Of a stretch of 64,000 nt of DNA, positions 40,671 through 47,797 are shown one piece after another. Location of the stretch: NCBI GenBank assembly GCA_040386935.1, contig JAZKEQ010000013.1:2399-66398 (forward strand). Direction: 5' to 3'. How positions within the stretch are numbered: position 1 is the stretch's first letter; each line of letters starts with the position of its first letter. A model generated the notes under the pieces. The model saw only the letters and a program-made list of their open reading frames with translations, was not told the origin of the DNA and did not search any database. Source of the stretch: Bacteroidota bacterium. Lineage in GTDB: Bacteria > Bacteroidota > Bacteroidia > NS11-12g > UBA955. The translations under genes and the position numbers were made by a program.

Positions 40671-40738
40671 AGGGCAAAATTAAATTTTTATTGTTAATTA
40701 AATGGCCTTAGTCAAATATAAATTATTATATTTGCTTT

Positions 40739-41119
40739 GTGAAAAAATGCATTGCCTTAGTGCTATTGCTTACAATTGTCAGTTCAAAAACAGAGATGCA
40801 CGAGGTCTTTAAGTTCCCTTTATTGCTTCACCATTTCTTTGAACACAGAGAAGACGACAAGAGCATTTCATTCATAGATTTCATTCAAATGCACTATTCT
40901 GAAGGTAGCCATCAAAAGCAAAATCACCACCACGAAAAACTACCTTTTAAATCACATTGCACCCAATTAAACTACAGCATTGCCGATGTTATTTTCAATG
41001 CTGATATCGCCATTCAATTTGAATTGAGTCCCGGACTAAAAACGCCTGCCATCTATCAGGAACCTTATTATGGTTTAACAGGTTTGGACAATATCTGGCA
41101 ACCCCCTAAAACAGTTTAA
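40739..41119 (+). CDS. hypothetical His-rich small protein upstream of czcA
   Basis: 126 aa with a GTG start and a signal-like N-terminus. His-rich stretches (LLLHHFFEHRED, GSHQKQNHHHEKLPFKSH). Confidence 0.45.
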   Translation: MKKCIALVLLLTIVSSKTEMHEVFKFPLLLHHFFEHREDDKSISFIDFIQMHYSEGSHQKQNHHHEKLPFKSHCTQLNYSIADVIFNADIAIQFELSPGLKTPAIYQEPYYGLTGLDNIWQPPKTV

Positions 41120-41307: not shown

Positions 41308-44300
41308 ATGTTAAAACACATCATAACATTTTCAGTAAACAATAAATTACTGATAGGGTTACTGACAGGCTTGCTGGTAATTGCGGGCGTATACAACGCT
41401 TACCGATTGCCCATTGACGCAGTGCCTGACATTACAGACAATCAGGTTCAGGTCATCACTGTTGCCCCTTCATACGGTGCCACAGATATTGAAAGACTGG
41501 TTACCTTTCCCATAGAACAAGTCAACAACAACATTGACGGCCTCAAAGAAATCAGGAGTTTTTCTCGATTCGGATTATCGCTGGTGACCATCGTTTTTGA
41601 AGACCATATCGATATTTACAAAGCCCGTCAACAAGTGGCCGAACGCTTGCAAAAAGTGCAATCGCAAATTCCTAAAGACATTGGCACCCCTGAATTGGGG
41701 CCGGTATCAACAGGATTGGGTGAAATTTATCAATATGTATTAAGACCCGACAAGGGCTACGAAAACAAATACGATATTTCAGAATTAAGAACTCTGCAAG
41801 ACTGGATTGTGAGACGGCAATTGCTAGGTATTAAAGGCATCGCAGAGGTCAGCAGTTTTGGCGGAAAACTGAAACAATTTTCAGTAGAAATAGACCCTGA
41901 CCAATTAAAAGCCCGCGATGTAAACATATCTGATGTTTTCAAAGCATTGGAAAACAACAACAGCAATACGGGTGGCGCTTATATTGAACAACAATCAACC
42001 GTCTTATACATCCGCTCTGAAGGATTATTAAACTCTACTTCGCAAATAGAAGAAACGGTTATAAAACCCGATAACAACGGTCATCCTATTTTTATCAGAG
42101 ATGTCGCAACAATTAAAATCGGCCATGCGGTACGCTATGGCGCATTGACCTATAATGATTACGGAGAAGTGGCCGGTGGCATTGTGATGATGTTAAAAGG
42201 CGGCAATAGTAGTGAGATCATCAGGGATGTAAAAAAGAAAGTCGAAGAAATTAAAAAGACCTTACCAAAGGGTGTTATCCTCGAGCCTTTCCTCGACCGT
42301 ACAAAAATGGTGAACAATGCCATTGGCACAGTTGAAACCAATTTGACGGAAGGTGCGTTAATTGTTGTATTTATACTGGTATTATTTTTAGGCAATGTAA
42401 GAGCGGGTTTATTAGTTGCTTCAGTAATTCCACTGGCCATGTTATTTGCGGTTATCATGATGAATGCCTTTGGTGTGAGCGGCAATCTAATGAGCTTAGG
42501 TGCCCTTGACTTTGGATTGATTGTAGACGGTGCTGTTATTATTGTAGAAGCCGTGATGCATCAAACAGTAAGCAAAGGACTAATACCTGTTAATGGCAAT
42601 GATACGGGAAACGACATGAATGGTTTGGTATCAAAAACTGCAGGACGCATTATGAACAGTGCGGTATTCGGACAAGCCATTATTTTAATTGTATACTTAC
42701 CCATACTCACCCTTGAAGGCATAGAAGGCAAAATGTTTAAACCCATGGCACAAACCGTAAGTTTTGCATTATTGGGTGCATTTATTCTTTCACTCACGTA
42801 TATCCCCATGATGAGTGCATTGATCATTAAAAAACCCAATGGCAACAAACCGGGTTTCTCTGATAGATTGATGGCAAAACTGGAAAACGGCTATAGAAAA
42901 ATGCTACAAAAAGCCTTGCACTACCCTATTCAGATTATTGCCATTGTATCCATCTTATTTACTTCAGCAGTCATTATATTTTCGAACATGGGTGGTGAGT
43001 TTATACCAACACTTGAAGAAGGCGACTTTGCACTTGAGACAAGGGTTTTACCGGGAAGCAATTTGAATGTTAGTACCGATGCTGCTTTAAAAAGTTCAGC
43101 GCTATTGAAAAATAAGTTTCCTGAAATAGAAAAGATAGTAACCAAAATAGGCAGTGGCGAAGTGCCTACCGACCCCATGCCAATTGAAGCCATGGACATG
43201 ATGATTATTTTAAAAGACAAGAAAGATTGGACCAGTGCAGAAACCTTTGATGAATTATCAGAAAAAATGGGCAAGGAACTTGAGAAAATCCCGGGTGTTA
43301 CCTATGGCTTTCAATATCCTGTTCAAATGCGTTTCAATGAATTAATGACAGGGGCTAAACAAGATGTTGTTTGTAAAATATTTGGCGAGAATCTGGATAC
43401 GCTGACCCATTATGCCTCATTACTCGATAACATCATACAAACAATAGATGGTGCTGAAGACATATACATAGAAACTGTTACAGGCTTACCAGAAATTATT
43501 ATTGAATACAACCGACCGGCCATAGCGCAATACAACATGACCATTAACGACATTAACAATACGGTGAATATGGCATTTGCCGGAAAAACAAGCGGGCATG
43601 TATATGAAGGTGAGAAGAAATTCGATCTTGTGGTAAGACTTACAGGCAATAAGCGCAACGATCTCAGCGATGTAAGAAACCTGTTGGTACACACTCCCGA
43701 TGGGCATACAGTGCCACTTTCTTCGCTAGCCAATGTTGAAATTAAAGATGGTCCCAATCAAATACAACGCGAAAATACCCGCAGAAGAATTATTGCAGGG
43801 TTCAATGTAAAAGGCAGAGATGTGGAAAGCATAGTGAATGAATTGCAACAAAAAGCAGATAAGCAATTGCATTTTGCTCCTGGCTACAGCTTGAGTTTTG
43901 GTGGTGCATTTGAAAATTTGCAAGCTGCAAAAAAACGTTTACTGGTGGCCGTTCCCATATCACTTGTTTTGATTTTTATTTTGCTCTACTTTGCTTTTAA
44001 TTCTGTGAAACAAGGTTTGCTCATTTACACTGCCATCCCATTATCAGCCATAGGTGGTATTTTCTTTTTAGCGTTAAGGGGCATGCCTTTTAGCATCAGT
44101 GCCGGTATTGGTTTTATTGCCTTGTTCGGAGTTGCTGTTTTAAATGGCATTGTACTGATAGCAGAATTCAATCGCTTAAAATCAGAGACAGATGACAGTC
44201 CTGAAGACATTGTATTAAAAGGCGCTTCATCGCGACTGCGACCCGTATTGATGACTGCAGCAGTAGCATCGCTTGGCTTTCTACCCATGGCGCTAAGCAA

Positions 44301-45663
44301 TGGTGCAGGTGCCGAAGTACAACGTCCATTAGCTACTGTGGTAATAGGTGGGTTGATTATCGCCACTTTCCTAACCTTATTTTTAATTCCCATTATCTTT
44401 ACACTGATGGAACTCAAAACCTATCGCATCAAATTAAACCATAAAAATGCATTGATGTTATTGATTTGTGTGGCTGCTTCAAATGGCTTATTTGCCCAGA
44501 AAGAAATAACACTTCAGGCTGCCATAGATACTGCCATTAAAAACAACAGAACCATTAAAATAGAACGATTGAAACTCGACTACCGCAAAGCTATGGCAAA
44601 AACGGCAATCGACATTCAACCTACTATTGCAAGTGTTGAGTATGGTCAAATAAATAGTTCGTACTCTGATCTGTTGTTCGGGCTTTCGCAAACCATTAAT
44701 TTCCCTACTGTTTATAAGCGTCAGCAATATGTATTGCGCGAAGAAGTATTGCTTCAGGAAACAACAATTGCAAAAAAAGAATTGCAGTTAAAAAAAGAAG
44801 TGACGGATATCTATATTCAACTTTCCAATTTATTTGCGAAGCAACAATTGATGTTAAAGAATGATACCCTGTACAACAATTTTGCGCAAAGGGCATCACA
44901 GCAATTTGAAAAAGGCGAAAGCAATTTATCTGAAAAAACAATTGCAGATAATCAATTGTATCAATTGAGGGCACAGCTTGAATTATTAAAAGCAGACATC
45001 GCTATTTTAGAACTACAGTTTCAATATTTACTCAATACATATGAACCATTCATTCCTGAAGCAGGTTTCAACACGATTGAAAAATCTTTTTTCACAGATT
45101 CAGCAGCATTGAACAAGCATCCTGAAATACAAGCAATGGCAAGGCATATTAAAATAGCACAAGCGCAAAACAGATTAGAGAAATCAAAACTATTGCCCGA
45201 TTTAACTGCCGGCTACAGCAATATGAGTATGCGGGGTTATGGTGCAGACAATATTTTGTATACAAGTTCAACCCGTTTTCAATCCTTTCAGTTTGGAATT
45301 GGCATTCCGATATTTTACGGCTCACAAAAAGCCCATATCAATGCAACTGCAATTAATGAAACCATCGCAGTGGCACAATTCAATGCAGGGAAAAGCAAAT
45401 TGGCTATGGCGTTGCAACAAGCCTATATCAAATTTCAACAACTAGAAGTAGCGGTTAAGTTATATGAAAATCAATTGTTACCCAATGCCCGAATCATGAA
45501 GGCGACCACTGCGCTAAAATTTGAAAAAGGGGAAATTGATTATCTTGAATTTGTGCTGCTCACCAATCAAGCCATTGCGACTGAAACCATGTATATTGAC
45601 ACATTGAAAGATTACAATATCAGCATTAATCACCTTAATAACTTTACATCAGAACAACCATGA
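41308..45663 (+). CDS. czcA: CusA/CzcA-family heavy-metal RND efflux pump fused in frame to a TolC-like outer-membrane factor (CzcC-like)
   Basis: ORF 41263..45663. The ATG at 41308 gives MLKHIITFSVNNKLLIGLL...YRLPIDAVPDITDNQVQVIT, a canonical CzcA N-terminus. The RND part covers 41308..44406 (1033 aa). From the ATG at 44407, MELKTYRIKLNHKNALMLLICVAASNGLFAQ is followed by 2x OEP-repeat-like sequence (418 aa). Confidence 0.8.
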   Translation: MLKHIITFSVNNKLLIGLLTGLLVIAGVYNAYRLPIDAVPDITDNQVQVITVAPSYGATDIERLVTFPIEQVNNNIDGLKEIRSFSRFGLSLVTIVFEDHIDIYKARQQVAERLQKVQSQIPKDIGTPELGPVSTGLGEIYQYVLRPDKGYENKYDISELRTLQDWIVRRQLLGIKGIAEVSSFGGKLKQFSVEIDPDQLKARDVNISDVFKALENNNSNTGGAYIEQQSTVLYIRSEGLLNSTSQIEETVIKPDNNGHPIFIRDVATIKIGHAVRYGALTYNDYGEVAGGIVMMLKGGNSSEIIRDVKKKVEEIKKTLPKGVILEPFLDRTKMVNNAIGTVETNLTEGALIVVFILVLFLGNVRAGLLVASVIPLAMLFAVIMMNAFGVSGNLMSLGALDFGLIVDGAVIIVEAVMHQTVSKGLIPVNGNDTGNDMNGLVSKTAGRIMNSAVFGQAIILIVYLPILTLEGIEGKMFKPMAQTVSFALLGAFILSLTYIPMMSALIIKKPNGNKPGFSDRLMAKLENGYRKMLQKALHYPIQIIAIVSILFTSAVIIFSNMGGEFIPTLEEGDFALETRVLPGSNLNVSTDAALKSSALLKNKFPEIEKIVTKIGSGEVPTDPMPIEAMDMMIILKDKKDWTSAETFDELSEKMGKELEKIPGVTYGFQYPVQMRFNELMTGAKQDVVCKIFGENLDTLTHYASLLDNIIQTIDGAEDIYIETVTGLPEIIIEYNRPAIAQYNMTINDINNTVNMAFAGKTSGHVYEGEKKFDLVVRLTGNKRNDLSDVRNLLVHTPDGHTVPLSSLANVEIKDGPNQIQRENTRRRIIAGFNVKGRDVESIVNELQQKADKQLHFAPGYSLSFGGAFENLQAAKKRLLVAVPISLVLIFILLYFAFNSVKQGLLIYTAIPLSAIGGIFFLALRGMPFSISAGIGFIALFGVAVLNGIVLIAEFNRLKSETDDSPEDIVLKGASSRLRPVLMTAAVASLGFLPMALSNGAGAEVQRPLATVVIGGLIIATFLTLFLIPIIFTLMELKTYRIKLNHKNALMLLICVAASNGLFAQKEITLQAAIDTAIKNNRTIKIERLKLDYRKAMAKTAIDIQPTIASVEYGQINSSYSDLLFGLSQTINFPTVYKRQQYVLREEVLLQETTIAKKELQLKKEVTDIYIQLSNLFAKQQLMLKNDTLYNNFAQRASQQFEKGESNLSEKTIADNQLYQLRAQLELLKADIAILELQFQYLLNTYEPFIPEAGFNTIEKSFFTDSAALNKHPEIQAMARHIKIAQAQNRLEKSKLLPDLTAGYSNMSMRGYGADNILYTSSTRFQSFQFGIGIPIFYGSQKAHINATAINETIAVAQFNAGKSKLAMALQQAYIKFQQLEVAVKLYENQLLPNARIMKATTALKFEKGEIDYLEFVLLTNQAIATETMYIDTLKDYNISINHLNNFTSEQP

Positions 45664-46658
45664 TACAAGTCAATTCATTTAACACCATACGGATGCAAAA
45701 GTTGCTGGTACTTGTATCGGTCACATTGTTTATCCTAAAAATAATTGCCTGGGCCATGACAGGTTCTGTTGCCATACTCACTGATGCACTTGAAAGCACT
45801 GTGAATGTTATTGCAGGATTTATCGGTTTGTACAGCATTATTTTATCAGCCAAACCAAAAGACCAGGACCATCCTTACGGCCATGGTAAGGTGGAGTTTA
45901 TTTCTTCAGCCATAGAAGGTGTGCTGATTACTATTGCCGGACTGATCATCATTTATGAATCCATCAACAACCTCATACATCCACACAATATACAACAGCT
46001 GAATATCGGTATCATCATTATGGCCATTACTGCTATTATCAATTTTATCGTTGGGCAATTGTGTGTCAATAAAGGCAAAAAAGACAACTCCCCTATTTTA
46101 ATTGCCAGCGGCTCACACTTGAAATCTGATACTTATTCCACCATCGGATTACTGATTGGTCTTGGATTGATCATGCTAACAGGCTTCAAATGGATTGACA
46201 GTGCTGCTGCCCTAGTTTTTGCATTTATCATCATTTTTACCGGTTATAAAATCATTCGCAAGTCTATAGGTGGCATTATGGATGAATCGGACAATGCCAT
46301 ACTTGATGACATTGTAGAATTGCTCAATCAAAATAGGAATGAACGCTGGATAGATGTTCACAACATGCGGGTGATTAACTATGCAGGCTTTTATCACATA
46401 GATTGCCATCTAACAGTCCCTTATTATGTGAATGTCAACGAAGCTCATCAAATTCTCGATGAACTGACCGACATGTTCAAGAAACATTTTCAAGAACGGG
46501 TAGAATTCTTTGTACATATTGACGGCTGCATTCCCGAAAAACAATGCAGCATCTGCAATGTACAGTCATGCTCAGTCAGACAACAACCTTTTGAGTCGCA
46601 CGTACAATGGACCCGCGACAATATTATTTCCAACAAAAAACACGCTAAACAACAATAA
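45660..46658 (+). CDS. cation diffusion facilitator (CDF) family transporter
   Basis: 332 aa with SVAILTDALESTVN, DHPYGHGKVE and six TM helices plus a cytoplasmic C-terminal domain. The start overlaps the fusion-gene stop (ATGA). Confidence 0.85.
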   Translation: MIQVNSFNTIRMQKLLVLVSVTLFILKIIAWAMTGSVAILTDALESTVNVIAGFIGLYSIILSAKPKDQDHPYGHGKVEFISSAIEGVLITIAGLIIIYESINNLIHPHNIQQLNIGIIIMAITAIINFIVGQLCVNKGKKDNSPILIASGSHLKSDTYSTIGLLIGLGLIMLTGFKWIDSAAALVFAFIIIFTGYKIIRKSIGGIMDESDNAILDDIVELLNQNRNERWIDVHNMRVINYAGFYHIDCHLTVPYYVNVNEAHQILDELTDMFKKHFQERVEFFVHIDGCIPEKQCSICNVQSCSVRQQPFESHVQWTRDNIISNKKHAKQQ

Positions 46659-46663
46659 GCCTC

Positions 46664-47797
46664 ATGAATCATTTATATAAACATATACTGTTCACTCTAC
46701 CATTATTTATAGTGGCCTGTAACTCGGCCAGTAAAGAAATTGCTACTGAAAGCACATCAGCAGAAACCAATACAATTACATTGAGCAAAGAACAATTCAA
46801 AAATGCCGGTATTGAAATCGGCAGTATAAGTTCGCGCACAATTTCAGAAACAATAAAAGCCAATGGCAAAATAGATGTGCCACCACAAAACATGGTCTCT
46901 ATCAGTGTACCATTAGGTGGTTACTTAAAATACACCAAGCTATTGCCCGGCACACATGTCAACAAAGGCGATGTGTTGGCAGTATTGGAAGACCCGCAAT
47001 ACATCCAGATCCAACAAGACTATTTGGTAGCAGGAGCGCAATTGGCCAGTATTGAAAGCGAATACCAACGTCAGTTAGAACTCAACAAGAATAAATCAAT
47101 CAGCGACAAAGTATTTGAACAAACACGCGCCAATTATCAGACCCAAAAAATCACCATTCAGGCCTTATCTGAAAAATTAAAACTGATAGGCATCAATCCA
47201 CAAAAGTTGAATGAAAACAGTTTGTCGCGATCAGTGAACATTCTTTCTCCTATCAATGGGTATACGACTAAAATAAATGCGAACATCGGCAAGTACATTA
47301 ACCCAAACGACATTTTATTTGAATTGGTGGATCCATCCGACATCCATTTAAACCTGAACATTTATGAAAAGGATTTGCATAAACTCTATACCGATCAGCC
47401 TTTGGTGGCATTCAATAACACCCACCCTGAAATAAAACACAAATGCAAAATACTGCTGATAGCTAAAGACATCAATGATGGTATTGCCGAAGTTCACTGC
47501 CATTTTGATGCGTACGATAAGCAACTGGCTCCGGGCATGTATATGAATGCTGAGATAGAAATTCAAAACAAGGCCGCCAATGTTTTACCTGAGGATGCGA
47601 TTGTGCGCCACGAAGGGAAATACTACATTTTTGAAAGTACAGGCAACAATACATTTGAAATGCGCCAGGTAGAGATTGGCGTAACCAATGAGAATTTCAC
47701 TGAAATACTCAGCACTGACTTCGAAAAAAAGCAAATTGTCACAAAAGGGGCTTATACACTTTTGATGACTTTAATGAATAAAGCAGAAGAAGAATAA
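46664..47797 (+). CDS. efflux RND periplasmic adaptor subunit (CzcB/HlyD-like)
   Basis: 377 aa with a lipoprotein-like signal (LFIVAC), a barrel-sandwich segment (GDVLAVLEDPQYIQIQQDYL), a coiled-coil hairpin and a C-terminal beta domain. Confidence 0.8.
   Translation: MNHLYKHILFTLPLFIVACNSASKEIATESTSAETNTITLSKEQFKNAGIEIGSISSRTISETIKANGKIDVPPQNMVSISVPLGGYLKYTKLLPGTHVNKGDVLAVLEDPQYIQIQQDYLVAGAQLASIESEYQRQLELNKNKSISDKVFEQTRANYQTQKITIQALSEKLKLIGINPQKLNENSLSRSVNILSPINGYTTKINANIGKYINPNDILFELVDPSDIHLNLNIYEKDLHKLYTDQPLVAFNNTHPEIKHKCKILLIAKDINDGIAEVHCHFDAYDKQLAPGMYMNAEIEIQNKAANVLPEDAIVRHEGKYYIFESTGNNTFEMRQVEIGVTNENFTEILSTDFEKKQIVTKGAYTLLMTLMNKAEEE

Follow-up and report, generated by a model that had tools for sequence, protein, structure and literature searches.

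The window analysed here is a 64,000 nt stretch of a Bacteroidota genome (GenBank assembly GCA_040386935.1, contig JAZKEQ010000013.1, positions 2,399 to 66,398), in which one open reading frame (ORF) on the forward strand, 41308-45663, encodes a metal efflux pump of the resistance-nodulation-division (RND) superfamily fused to an outer-membrane factor (OMF). The frame specifies 1,451 aa and closes with a TGA stop codon at 45661-45663. Its upstream limit is either GTG 41263 or ATG 41308, from both of which it is open through to the end; ATG 41308 was taken as the start because the TIGR00914 profile and the homologues align from residue 1. The gene is present as one copy in the 3.41 Mb genome, a draft in 81 contigs, and its product divides into the pump (residues 1-1033), a linker (1034-1063) and the OMF (1064-1451). 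As both halves are complete, the fusion of pump and channel is confirmed; it is real and conserved. On the features described below, the chain is probably a precursor that signal peptidase I (SPase I) would cut at LFA(1063)/Q(1064) into two proteins destined for two membranes.

The initial annotation identified 41308-44406 as a complete CzcA-type RND pump, and profile searches agree. Pfam ACR_tran spans residues 5-1034 (E 8e-270), whilst TIGR00914, the CusA/CzcA model, scores 1136.7 bits against a cut-off of 701.45 and matches 1043 of its 1051 positions to residues 1-1042, in keeping with a pump of the heavy metal efflux (HME) type. A hydropathy scan finds 12 transmembrane (TM) segments: TM1 at residues 14-32, TM2 and TM3 merged at about 348-385, then TM4 to TM7, and TM8 to TM12 extending to 1030, with two large loops at about 33-345 and 560-877. 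AcrB and CusA have a 12-TM architecture with both termini on the cytoplasmic side, and from their structures we infer that the loops of this pump are periplasmic and its C terminus cytoplasmic. TM4 carries the motif DFGLIVDGAVIIVEA at residues 401-415 (pattern DFG..DGA..VE), of which the D, D and E are invariant across the family alignment. Its final residue is Ala, where the acidic proton-relay consensus reportedly given by Nies in 2003, DFG-DGA-VEN, has Asn. TM12 (ATVVIGGLIIATFLTLFLIPIIFTL, approximately residues 1009-1033, 44332-44406) has its hydropathy peak at 1012-1030 and would end on the cytoplasmic side; its block QRPLATVVIGGL...P..Y is nearly invariant among 55 aligned full-length fusions. 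The predicted substrates are metal cations, as supported by the cation diffusion facilitator (CDF) and CzcB-like genes of the same operon.

The remaining 418 aa had likewise been read as a complete OMF, and both the domain content and the modelled fold of this part match that description. A Pfam search of the protein finds OEP (PF02321) in two stretches, totalling 71.1 bits, and a profile search of the genome places the two repeats at 44512-45036 and 45103-45642 (58.3 and 30.4 bits respectively, with a cut-off of 22). The predicted mature OMF comprises the 388 residues 1064-1451 (44497-45660). Residues 1034-1451 were modelled in AlphaFold2 together with 44 homologues; the model has a predicted local distance difference test score (pLDDT) of 87.2 and a predicted template modelling score (pTM) of 0.78, and shows the duplicated protomer fold of four beta strands (73-80, 87-97, 265-278 and 284-299 in the numbering of the tail model) and four long helices (100-168, 174-209, 305-373 and 379-414). 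Foldseek matches this model to TolC, TOprJ1, SilC, CusC and OprM, structures 3pik and 1ek9 amongst them, with template modelling scores of 0.70-0.78 over about 405-415 columns and E values of roughly 1e-16 to 1e-13; at the level of sequence, SilC (9rmm) matches residues 39-415 of the tail with an E value of 2e-6. Maturation as a lipoprotein through signal peptidase II was considered and rejected: there is no Cys at LFA/Q, and TIGR01845, with 39.2 bits, falls far short of its cut-off of 210, hence the OMF appears to be non-lipidated. The Cys in the LLIC sequence of the linker is preceded by Ile, which misfits a lipobox, and lies in a column that is not conserved.

Between the two halves the chain reads ...LIPIIFTL-MELKTYRIKLNHKNALMLLICVAASNGLFA-QKEITLQAAIDTAIKNN, with an in-frame ATG at 44407 and CAG, encoding Gln, at 44497. 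The basic n-region, hydrophobic core and LFA/Q site originally described at this junction are present exactly as given. The n-region, MELKTYRIKLNHKN (residues 1034-1047, 44407-44448), opens with ATG 44407 and contains four Lys or Arg residues, one Glu and one His; since TIGR00914 continues to align as far as residue 1042, it is also the native cytoplasmic tail of the pump. It is followed by ALMLLICVAA (residues 1048-1057, 44449-44478), a hydrophobic core, or h-region, with the short length of a signal peptide rather than that of a TM helix. No 19-residue window of the linker attains a hydropathy of 1.6, which all 12 TM segments of the pump do; in the tail model a helix is predicted at residues 12-26 with low to moderate confidence. 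The c-region, SNGLFA (residues 1058-1063, 44479-44496), presents Leu at -3 and Ala at -1, so that the predicted SPase I cut falls between 44496 and 44497 and makes Gln1064 (CAG, 44497-44499) the predicted N-terminal residue of the mature OMF, whose sequence from that point is QKEITLQAAIDTAIK. The linker is hence the short cytoplasmic tail of the pump joined to what has all the marks of the OMF's own signal peptide, which lies internally at residues 1034-1063, as opposed to the N-terminal position it takes on separate OMF pre-proteins.

Gln at +1 has a particular meaning in this phylum. According to the Q-rule of the Bacteroidetes, cleavage by SPase I in most cases leaves Gln at the N terminus of the product, where it is cyclised to pyroglutamate; averaged over species, 71% of the substrates have this Gln (PMC5837995; PMC10653852). 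The present genome follows the rule in a heuristic scan: Gln stands at +1 of the candidate cut sites more often than any other residue (16.6%, background 3.5%), and a small residue followed by Gln occurs in 354 of the 840 signal-peptide-like ORFs with a candidate site. The conservation of the junction was studied in an alignment of 150 representatives clustered at ≤50% identity, in 96 of which the polypeptide also includes the RND TM12 ahead of the junction. The column of Gln1064 is occupied by Gln in all 96 fused and in 46 of 48 standalone representatives. Position -1 in the fused set holds Ala 82 times, Ser eight times, Gly five times and Val once, and small or aliphatic residues prevail at -3; the net charge of the n-part has a median of +3 and is at least +2 in 96%, and a median of 30 residues separates the end of TM12 from the cut. 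The A/Q junction, with its Gln fixed in every fused relative, therefore reads, in the light of the Q-rule, as the sign of SPase I cleavage that is characteristic of this phylum. Across the 55 full-length fusions, only five residues beyond the RND part are invariant, Gln1064 among them, and there are no conserved columns between residues 1032 and 1063. The linker is thus free in sequence yet constrained in pattern, which is the signature of a signal peptide and not of a structural helix.

Split relatives, in which pump and OMF are separate genes, allow this segment to be compared with an ordinary signal peptide, a comparison that the initial annotation had proposed. Six standalone matches were found in the genome survey described below, and in the four of these loci that were examined in detail the gene order is czcA, OMF, adaptor, with the czcA stop codon overlapping or closely preceding the OMF start. 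In the place of the linker, the split OMFs have an N-terminal signal peptide; in the three loci whose displayed sequence covers the site, it ends VNS/Q, FA/Q or SS/Q, at the position homologous to LFA/Q. The uncharged h- plus c-region has a median length of 17 residues in fused and 16 in standalone proteins (p = 0.98). On a tree of the OMF part, parsimony counts 14 changes between the fused and standalone states, at least six of them on well-supported branches. Such repeated interchange implies that both states must yield working products, and makes sense only if fused and split genes lead to the same mature proteins. In one of the split loci (L013:2150-2330, minus strand), an A-rich tract, GAAAAAAATAAAAAATAAAAAA, contains both the stop codon of czcA and the start codon of the OMF, which overlap; a single-base insertion or deletion there would turn the split state into the fused one, and this may explain why changes of state are so many.

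The fusion is widespread. A database search with residues 1000-1451, limited to long proteins, returned 4978 significant matches to the tail; the best 120 of these are nearly all of about 1447-1452 aa and have both Pfam domains. This agrees with the suspicion in the initial annotation that long CzcA entries of this kind exist in other Bacteroidota, where the databases name the fused proteins only CusA/CzcA. When 301 species genomes, sampled evenly from the Bacteroidota, were searched at E ≤1e-20, the tail had a match in 102 species and in 59 of 144 genera. Long open frames hold 117 of the 123 genomic matches (115 of 1437-1523 aa, one cut by the end of a contig and one of 1899 aa), and the other six are standalone frames of 402-453 aa. 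The 1899 aa frame (G151:C9:144387-145736) exceeds the usual fusion by about 450 aa and may carry a further fused domain. The junction is open in 72 of 80 named loci, drawn from the Flavobacteriales, Chitinophagales, Sphingobacteriales, Cytophagales and Bacteroidales and including Flavobacterium, Chryseobacterium, Myroides, Chitinophaga, Niabella, Pedobacter, Dyadobacter, Hymenobacter, Pontibacter, Algoriphagus, Bacteroidaceae and Paludibacter. The junction in the window aligns residue for residue with the other fused proteins, with no hint of a change of frame, and an assembly insertion or deletion at this point seems very unlikely on this comparative evidence. Three further fusion genes, Bacteroidota-like and 48-59% identical to that of the window, lie on contigs of metagenome-assembled genomes labelled Comamonas, Gemmatimonadota and Vulcanococcus (L043, L065 and L072). 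These contigs are probably mis-binned, although genuine fusions may possibly exist outside the phylum, for instance in Gemmatimonadota.

Other OMFs of the genome under study are standalone genes, with open frames of 461, 466 and 486 aa. It also has a second RND pump outside the window (C17:27532-31837), 24% identical to the first, which is encoded by a 1044 aa frame and followed by its OMF as a separate downstream gene. Fusion in this organism is confined to the heavy metal type.

The probable course of maturation can be set out as follows. The 12-TM CzcA part of the precursor, of approximately 160 kDa, would insert into the inner membrane co-translationally, leaving the end of TM12 in the cytoplasm, and the tail rich in Lys and Arg would stay inside in accordance with the positive-inside rule. 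The short h-region would then re-enter the translocon with its N-terminal end in and its C-terminal end out, threading the OMF into the periplasm, and at the periplasmic face the c-region SNGLFA would offer SPase I a site with Leu at -3 and Ala at -1. Cleavage after LFA(1063) would make Gln1064 the new N terminus, probably cyclised to pyroglutamate, and release a non-lipidated OMF of about 43 kDa from CzcA of about 117 kDa, which would retain a C-terminal hairpin remnant of around 30 residues. The 388 aa OMF would fold into the outer membrane in the manner of TolC-type proteins and, with the pump and the separately encoded adaptor (46664-47797), form an ordinary tripartite efflux pump for divalent metals, to which the CDF transporter (45660-46658) would pass metal from cytoplasm to periplasm. 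The fusion would hold RND and OMF synthesis to a 1:1 ratio, in agreement with the 3:3 stoichiometry in which these pumps assemble.

Several points weigh against cleavage by SPase I as proposed. It is unusual for a bacterial signal peptidase to act downstream of a domain with 12 TM segments, and we found no proteomic data, N-terminal sequence or blot in the literature that documents the cleavage. The hydrophobic remnant left on CzcA is a weak point of the model, which does not account for its fate. The signal peptide and start site calls come from heuristics of our own making rather than from SignalP. A profile search of the genome for the plant-type glutaminyl cyclase, PF05096, found none; the animal-type M28 enzyme, whose Pfam family is so wide that a match would have little diagnostic value, was not part of that search, and is presumably the cyclase that the organism uses. 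To these is added the sequence context of ATG 44407. In a position matrix derived from 355 confident starts, those of signal peptide proteins with a Q site, the 30 nt before this codon score 4.6, which places them at the 75th percentile of that set and at the 99.4th of internal ATGs; amongst internal ATGs that follow equally hydrophobic segments, about 5% score as high. The start-like context for which the initial annotation suggested looking is hence found, and it is possible that independent initiation contributes to OMF synthesis in this genome.

It could accordingly be argued that most OMF synthesis begins at ATG 44407 and yields an ordinary pre-protein (MELKTYRIKLNHKN-ALMLLICVAA-SNGLFA/Q), and that the read-through fusion is a tolerated by-product. 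The codon is in frame and followed by a workable signal peptide with n-, h- and c-regions, the 30 nt upstream are poor in G and rich in A and T and score like a true start even against controls that encode hydrophobic segments, and Bacteroidota are generally known to start translation without strong Shine-Dalgarno sites. Nevertheless, most of this bias in composition comes from the codons for Phe, Leu and Ile in TM12, and the family does not preserve the ATG. At its column Met is found in five of the 96 fused representatives, whereas 52 have Phe. An in-frame ATG lies between TM12 and the h-region in 25 of 76 fused loci, and in 42 of the 76 there is no ATG, GTG or TTG in this interval at all. 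With the start codon unconserved or absent, the family cannot rely on internal initiation, and a conserved internal start codon is rejected at the family level. In addition, as no stop codon intervenes, ribosomes that complete CzcA all go on to make the fusion, and cleavage would still be needed to render it harmless. We therefore consider it unlikely that internal initiation is the principal source of the OMF. The TGATG at 44404-44408 was also considered as the relic of an overlap between stop and start codons; its TGA is out of frame with the pump, and the arrangement was treated as a coincidence. Of the two routes originally envisaged for the OMF, then, a membrane segment that is cut by signal peptidase is favoured by the family evidence, whilst the internal ATG fails as the general route.

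Still less probable is cleavage by another protease, or at another position, with A/Q conserved for some different reason. Rhomboid, intramembrane proteases of the site-2 type and periplasmic enzymes would be candidates, the cleavage site is deduced from sequence rules only, and SPase I has rarely been documented to act at an internal site after 12 TM segments in bacteria. Yet the conserved traits are those of the SPase I substrates of this phylum (a small -1 residue, a small or aliphatic -3 residue, Gln at +1 and a short h-region), and standalone homologues carry the same motif in an ordinary N-terminal signal peptide.

There is a very slim chance that the fusion stays uncut, either working as a single tethered polypeptide or carrying the OMF half as non-functional baggage, for which the single open frame speaks and nothing further. 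The OMF fold is complete and conserved, however, and the repeated switches between fused and split states imply equivalent end products. Moreover, the first strand of the OMF in the model, at 32-34, begins one residue past Gln31 (Gln1064 of the whole chain), which leaves no spacer after the cut site or between the h-region and the first OMF element; in the solved TolC and CusC assemblies (1ek9 and 3pik) the OMF N terminus lies far from the inner membrane. Given that geometry and the lack of a tether after Gln1064, an uncut chain could presumably not reach the outer membrane. Finally, an artefact of sequencing or assembly, in which a lost stop codon or a 1 nt insertion or deletion merged two genes, is scarcely credible: the genome is a draft in 81 contigs and split and fused relatives do differ by small frame changes in an A-rich overlap, but the fused state is the norm for the phylum (117/123 matches and 72/80 named loci) and the window's junction lines up with that of other fusions position by position.

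Downstream of the fusion gene, and on the same strand, lies its operon partner, the CDF transporter gene (45660-46658; Cation_efflux and ZT_dimer domains, TIGR01297), the ATG of which overlaps the TGA of the fusion as ATGA. It is followed by the third component of the pump, a CzcB-like periplasmic adaptor, or membrane-fusion protein (46664-47797), recognised by HlyD_D23 and by TIGR01730 (137.9 bits, cut-off 94.9). The CDF gene thus separates fusion and adaptor here (45660-47797), whilst in the four split relatives examined in detail the OMF is directly followed by the adaptor. Upstream of czcA, the region 40727-41119 includes a His-rich ORF of 126 aa with a signal-like N terminus. A -7 box of the Bacteroidota type, TATATTTG, occupies 40727-40734, only four bases ahead of the proposed GTG start at 40739; hence either the start or the promoter assignment is doubtful.

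The system has the same three components as the CzcCBA, CusCBA and ZneCAB HME-RND systems of Proteobacteria. It shares with them a TIGR00914 pump, a CzcB-like adaptor and an OMF of the TolC/CusC/SilC fold; TM4 has the acidic pattern DFG..DGA..VE, with Ala where the consensus ends in Asn. It differs from them in that pump and OMF, separate genes in those systems, form one ORF; in the order of the genes, which is pump-OMF, CDF, adaptor as against czcC-B-A; and in the OMF, which lacks the lipobox Cys that CusC, SilC and the NodT family possess. The split czcA-OMF-adaptor operons of other Bacteroidota (L013-L016) consist of homologous genes in the same order, but there the czcA stop overlaps or abuts the OMF start and the OMF is an ordinary pre-protein, whereas in the window the frame runs through. 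The linker matches Q-rule SPase I substrates in its n/h/c anatomy, small -1 residue and Gln at +1 (PMC5837995; PMC10653852), but the usual substrates have their signal at the N terminus, not internally after a 12-TM protein, and the Gln found in 96 of 96 fusions compares with a mean of about 71% for SPase I substrates.

The closest mechanistic precedent known to us, by analogy, appears to be the cytochrome b-c1 precursor FbcH of Bradyrhizobium japonicum, which, as reportedly described by Thony-Meyer and colleagues in about 1989-1991, is processed into two subunits of one complex. FbcH is said to unite in one chain a polytopic membrane protein, an internal segment resembling a signal peptide and an exported partner. 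The anatomy seen in the window fits this pattern, with a polytopic domain ending in the cytoplasm, a signal-like segment and an exported partner belonging to the same tripartite pump. The families are unrelated, and both FbcH products stay at the inner membrane, whereas here the second must travel to the outer. Viral and eukaryotic polyproteins that are cut by signal peptidase at internal signals (PMC13578380; PMC5010249) are alike in their short h-region, small -1 and -3 residues and cut on the trans side; there the enzyme is the signal peptidase complex of the endoplasmic reticulum, and the analogy is one of mechanism, with no evolutionary kinship to the fusion in the window. We found no description of an RND-OMF fusion or of its processing in the literature, and no such fusion came up in text searches of the Q-rule paper, of a Chemical Reviews article on tripartite pumps and of a survey devoted to fusions of outer-membrane proteins, consistent with the view in the initial annotation that the maturation route is uncharacterised.

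A wider and more tentative proposal, which we hold to be possible but rather doubtful as a whole, is that the fusion is an obligate two-membrane polyprotein across the Bacteroidota. The translocon that TM12 has engaged would take the hydrophobic segment after it as a signal peptide, SPase I would cut the fixed A/Q site, and the spent signal would be kept as a 13th membrane hairpin; the fusion would enforce 1:1 synthesis where Shine-Dalgarno coupling is weak, and ATG 44407 might add a supply of channel independent of the pump in this genome.

Tripartite efflux pumps are textbook three-gene machines, whereas here two parts intended for different membranes share one chain, an arrangement present in roughly a third of the Bacteroidota species sampled. 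If the cleavage is as proposed, this would be a natural bacterial polyprotein resolved by SPase I across two membranes, bearing on how the enzyme discriminates internal signals from TM helices. It would also explain how pump stoichiometry is set in this phylum without classical translational coupling, and would correct the annotation of thousands of 'CusA/CzcA' entries that conceal an outer-membrane channel.

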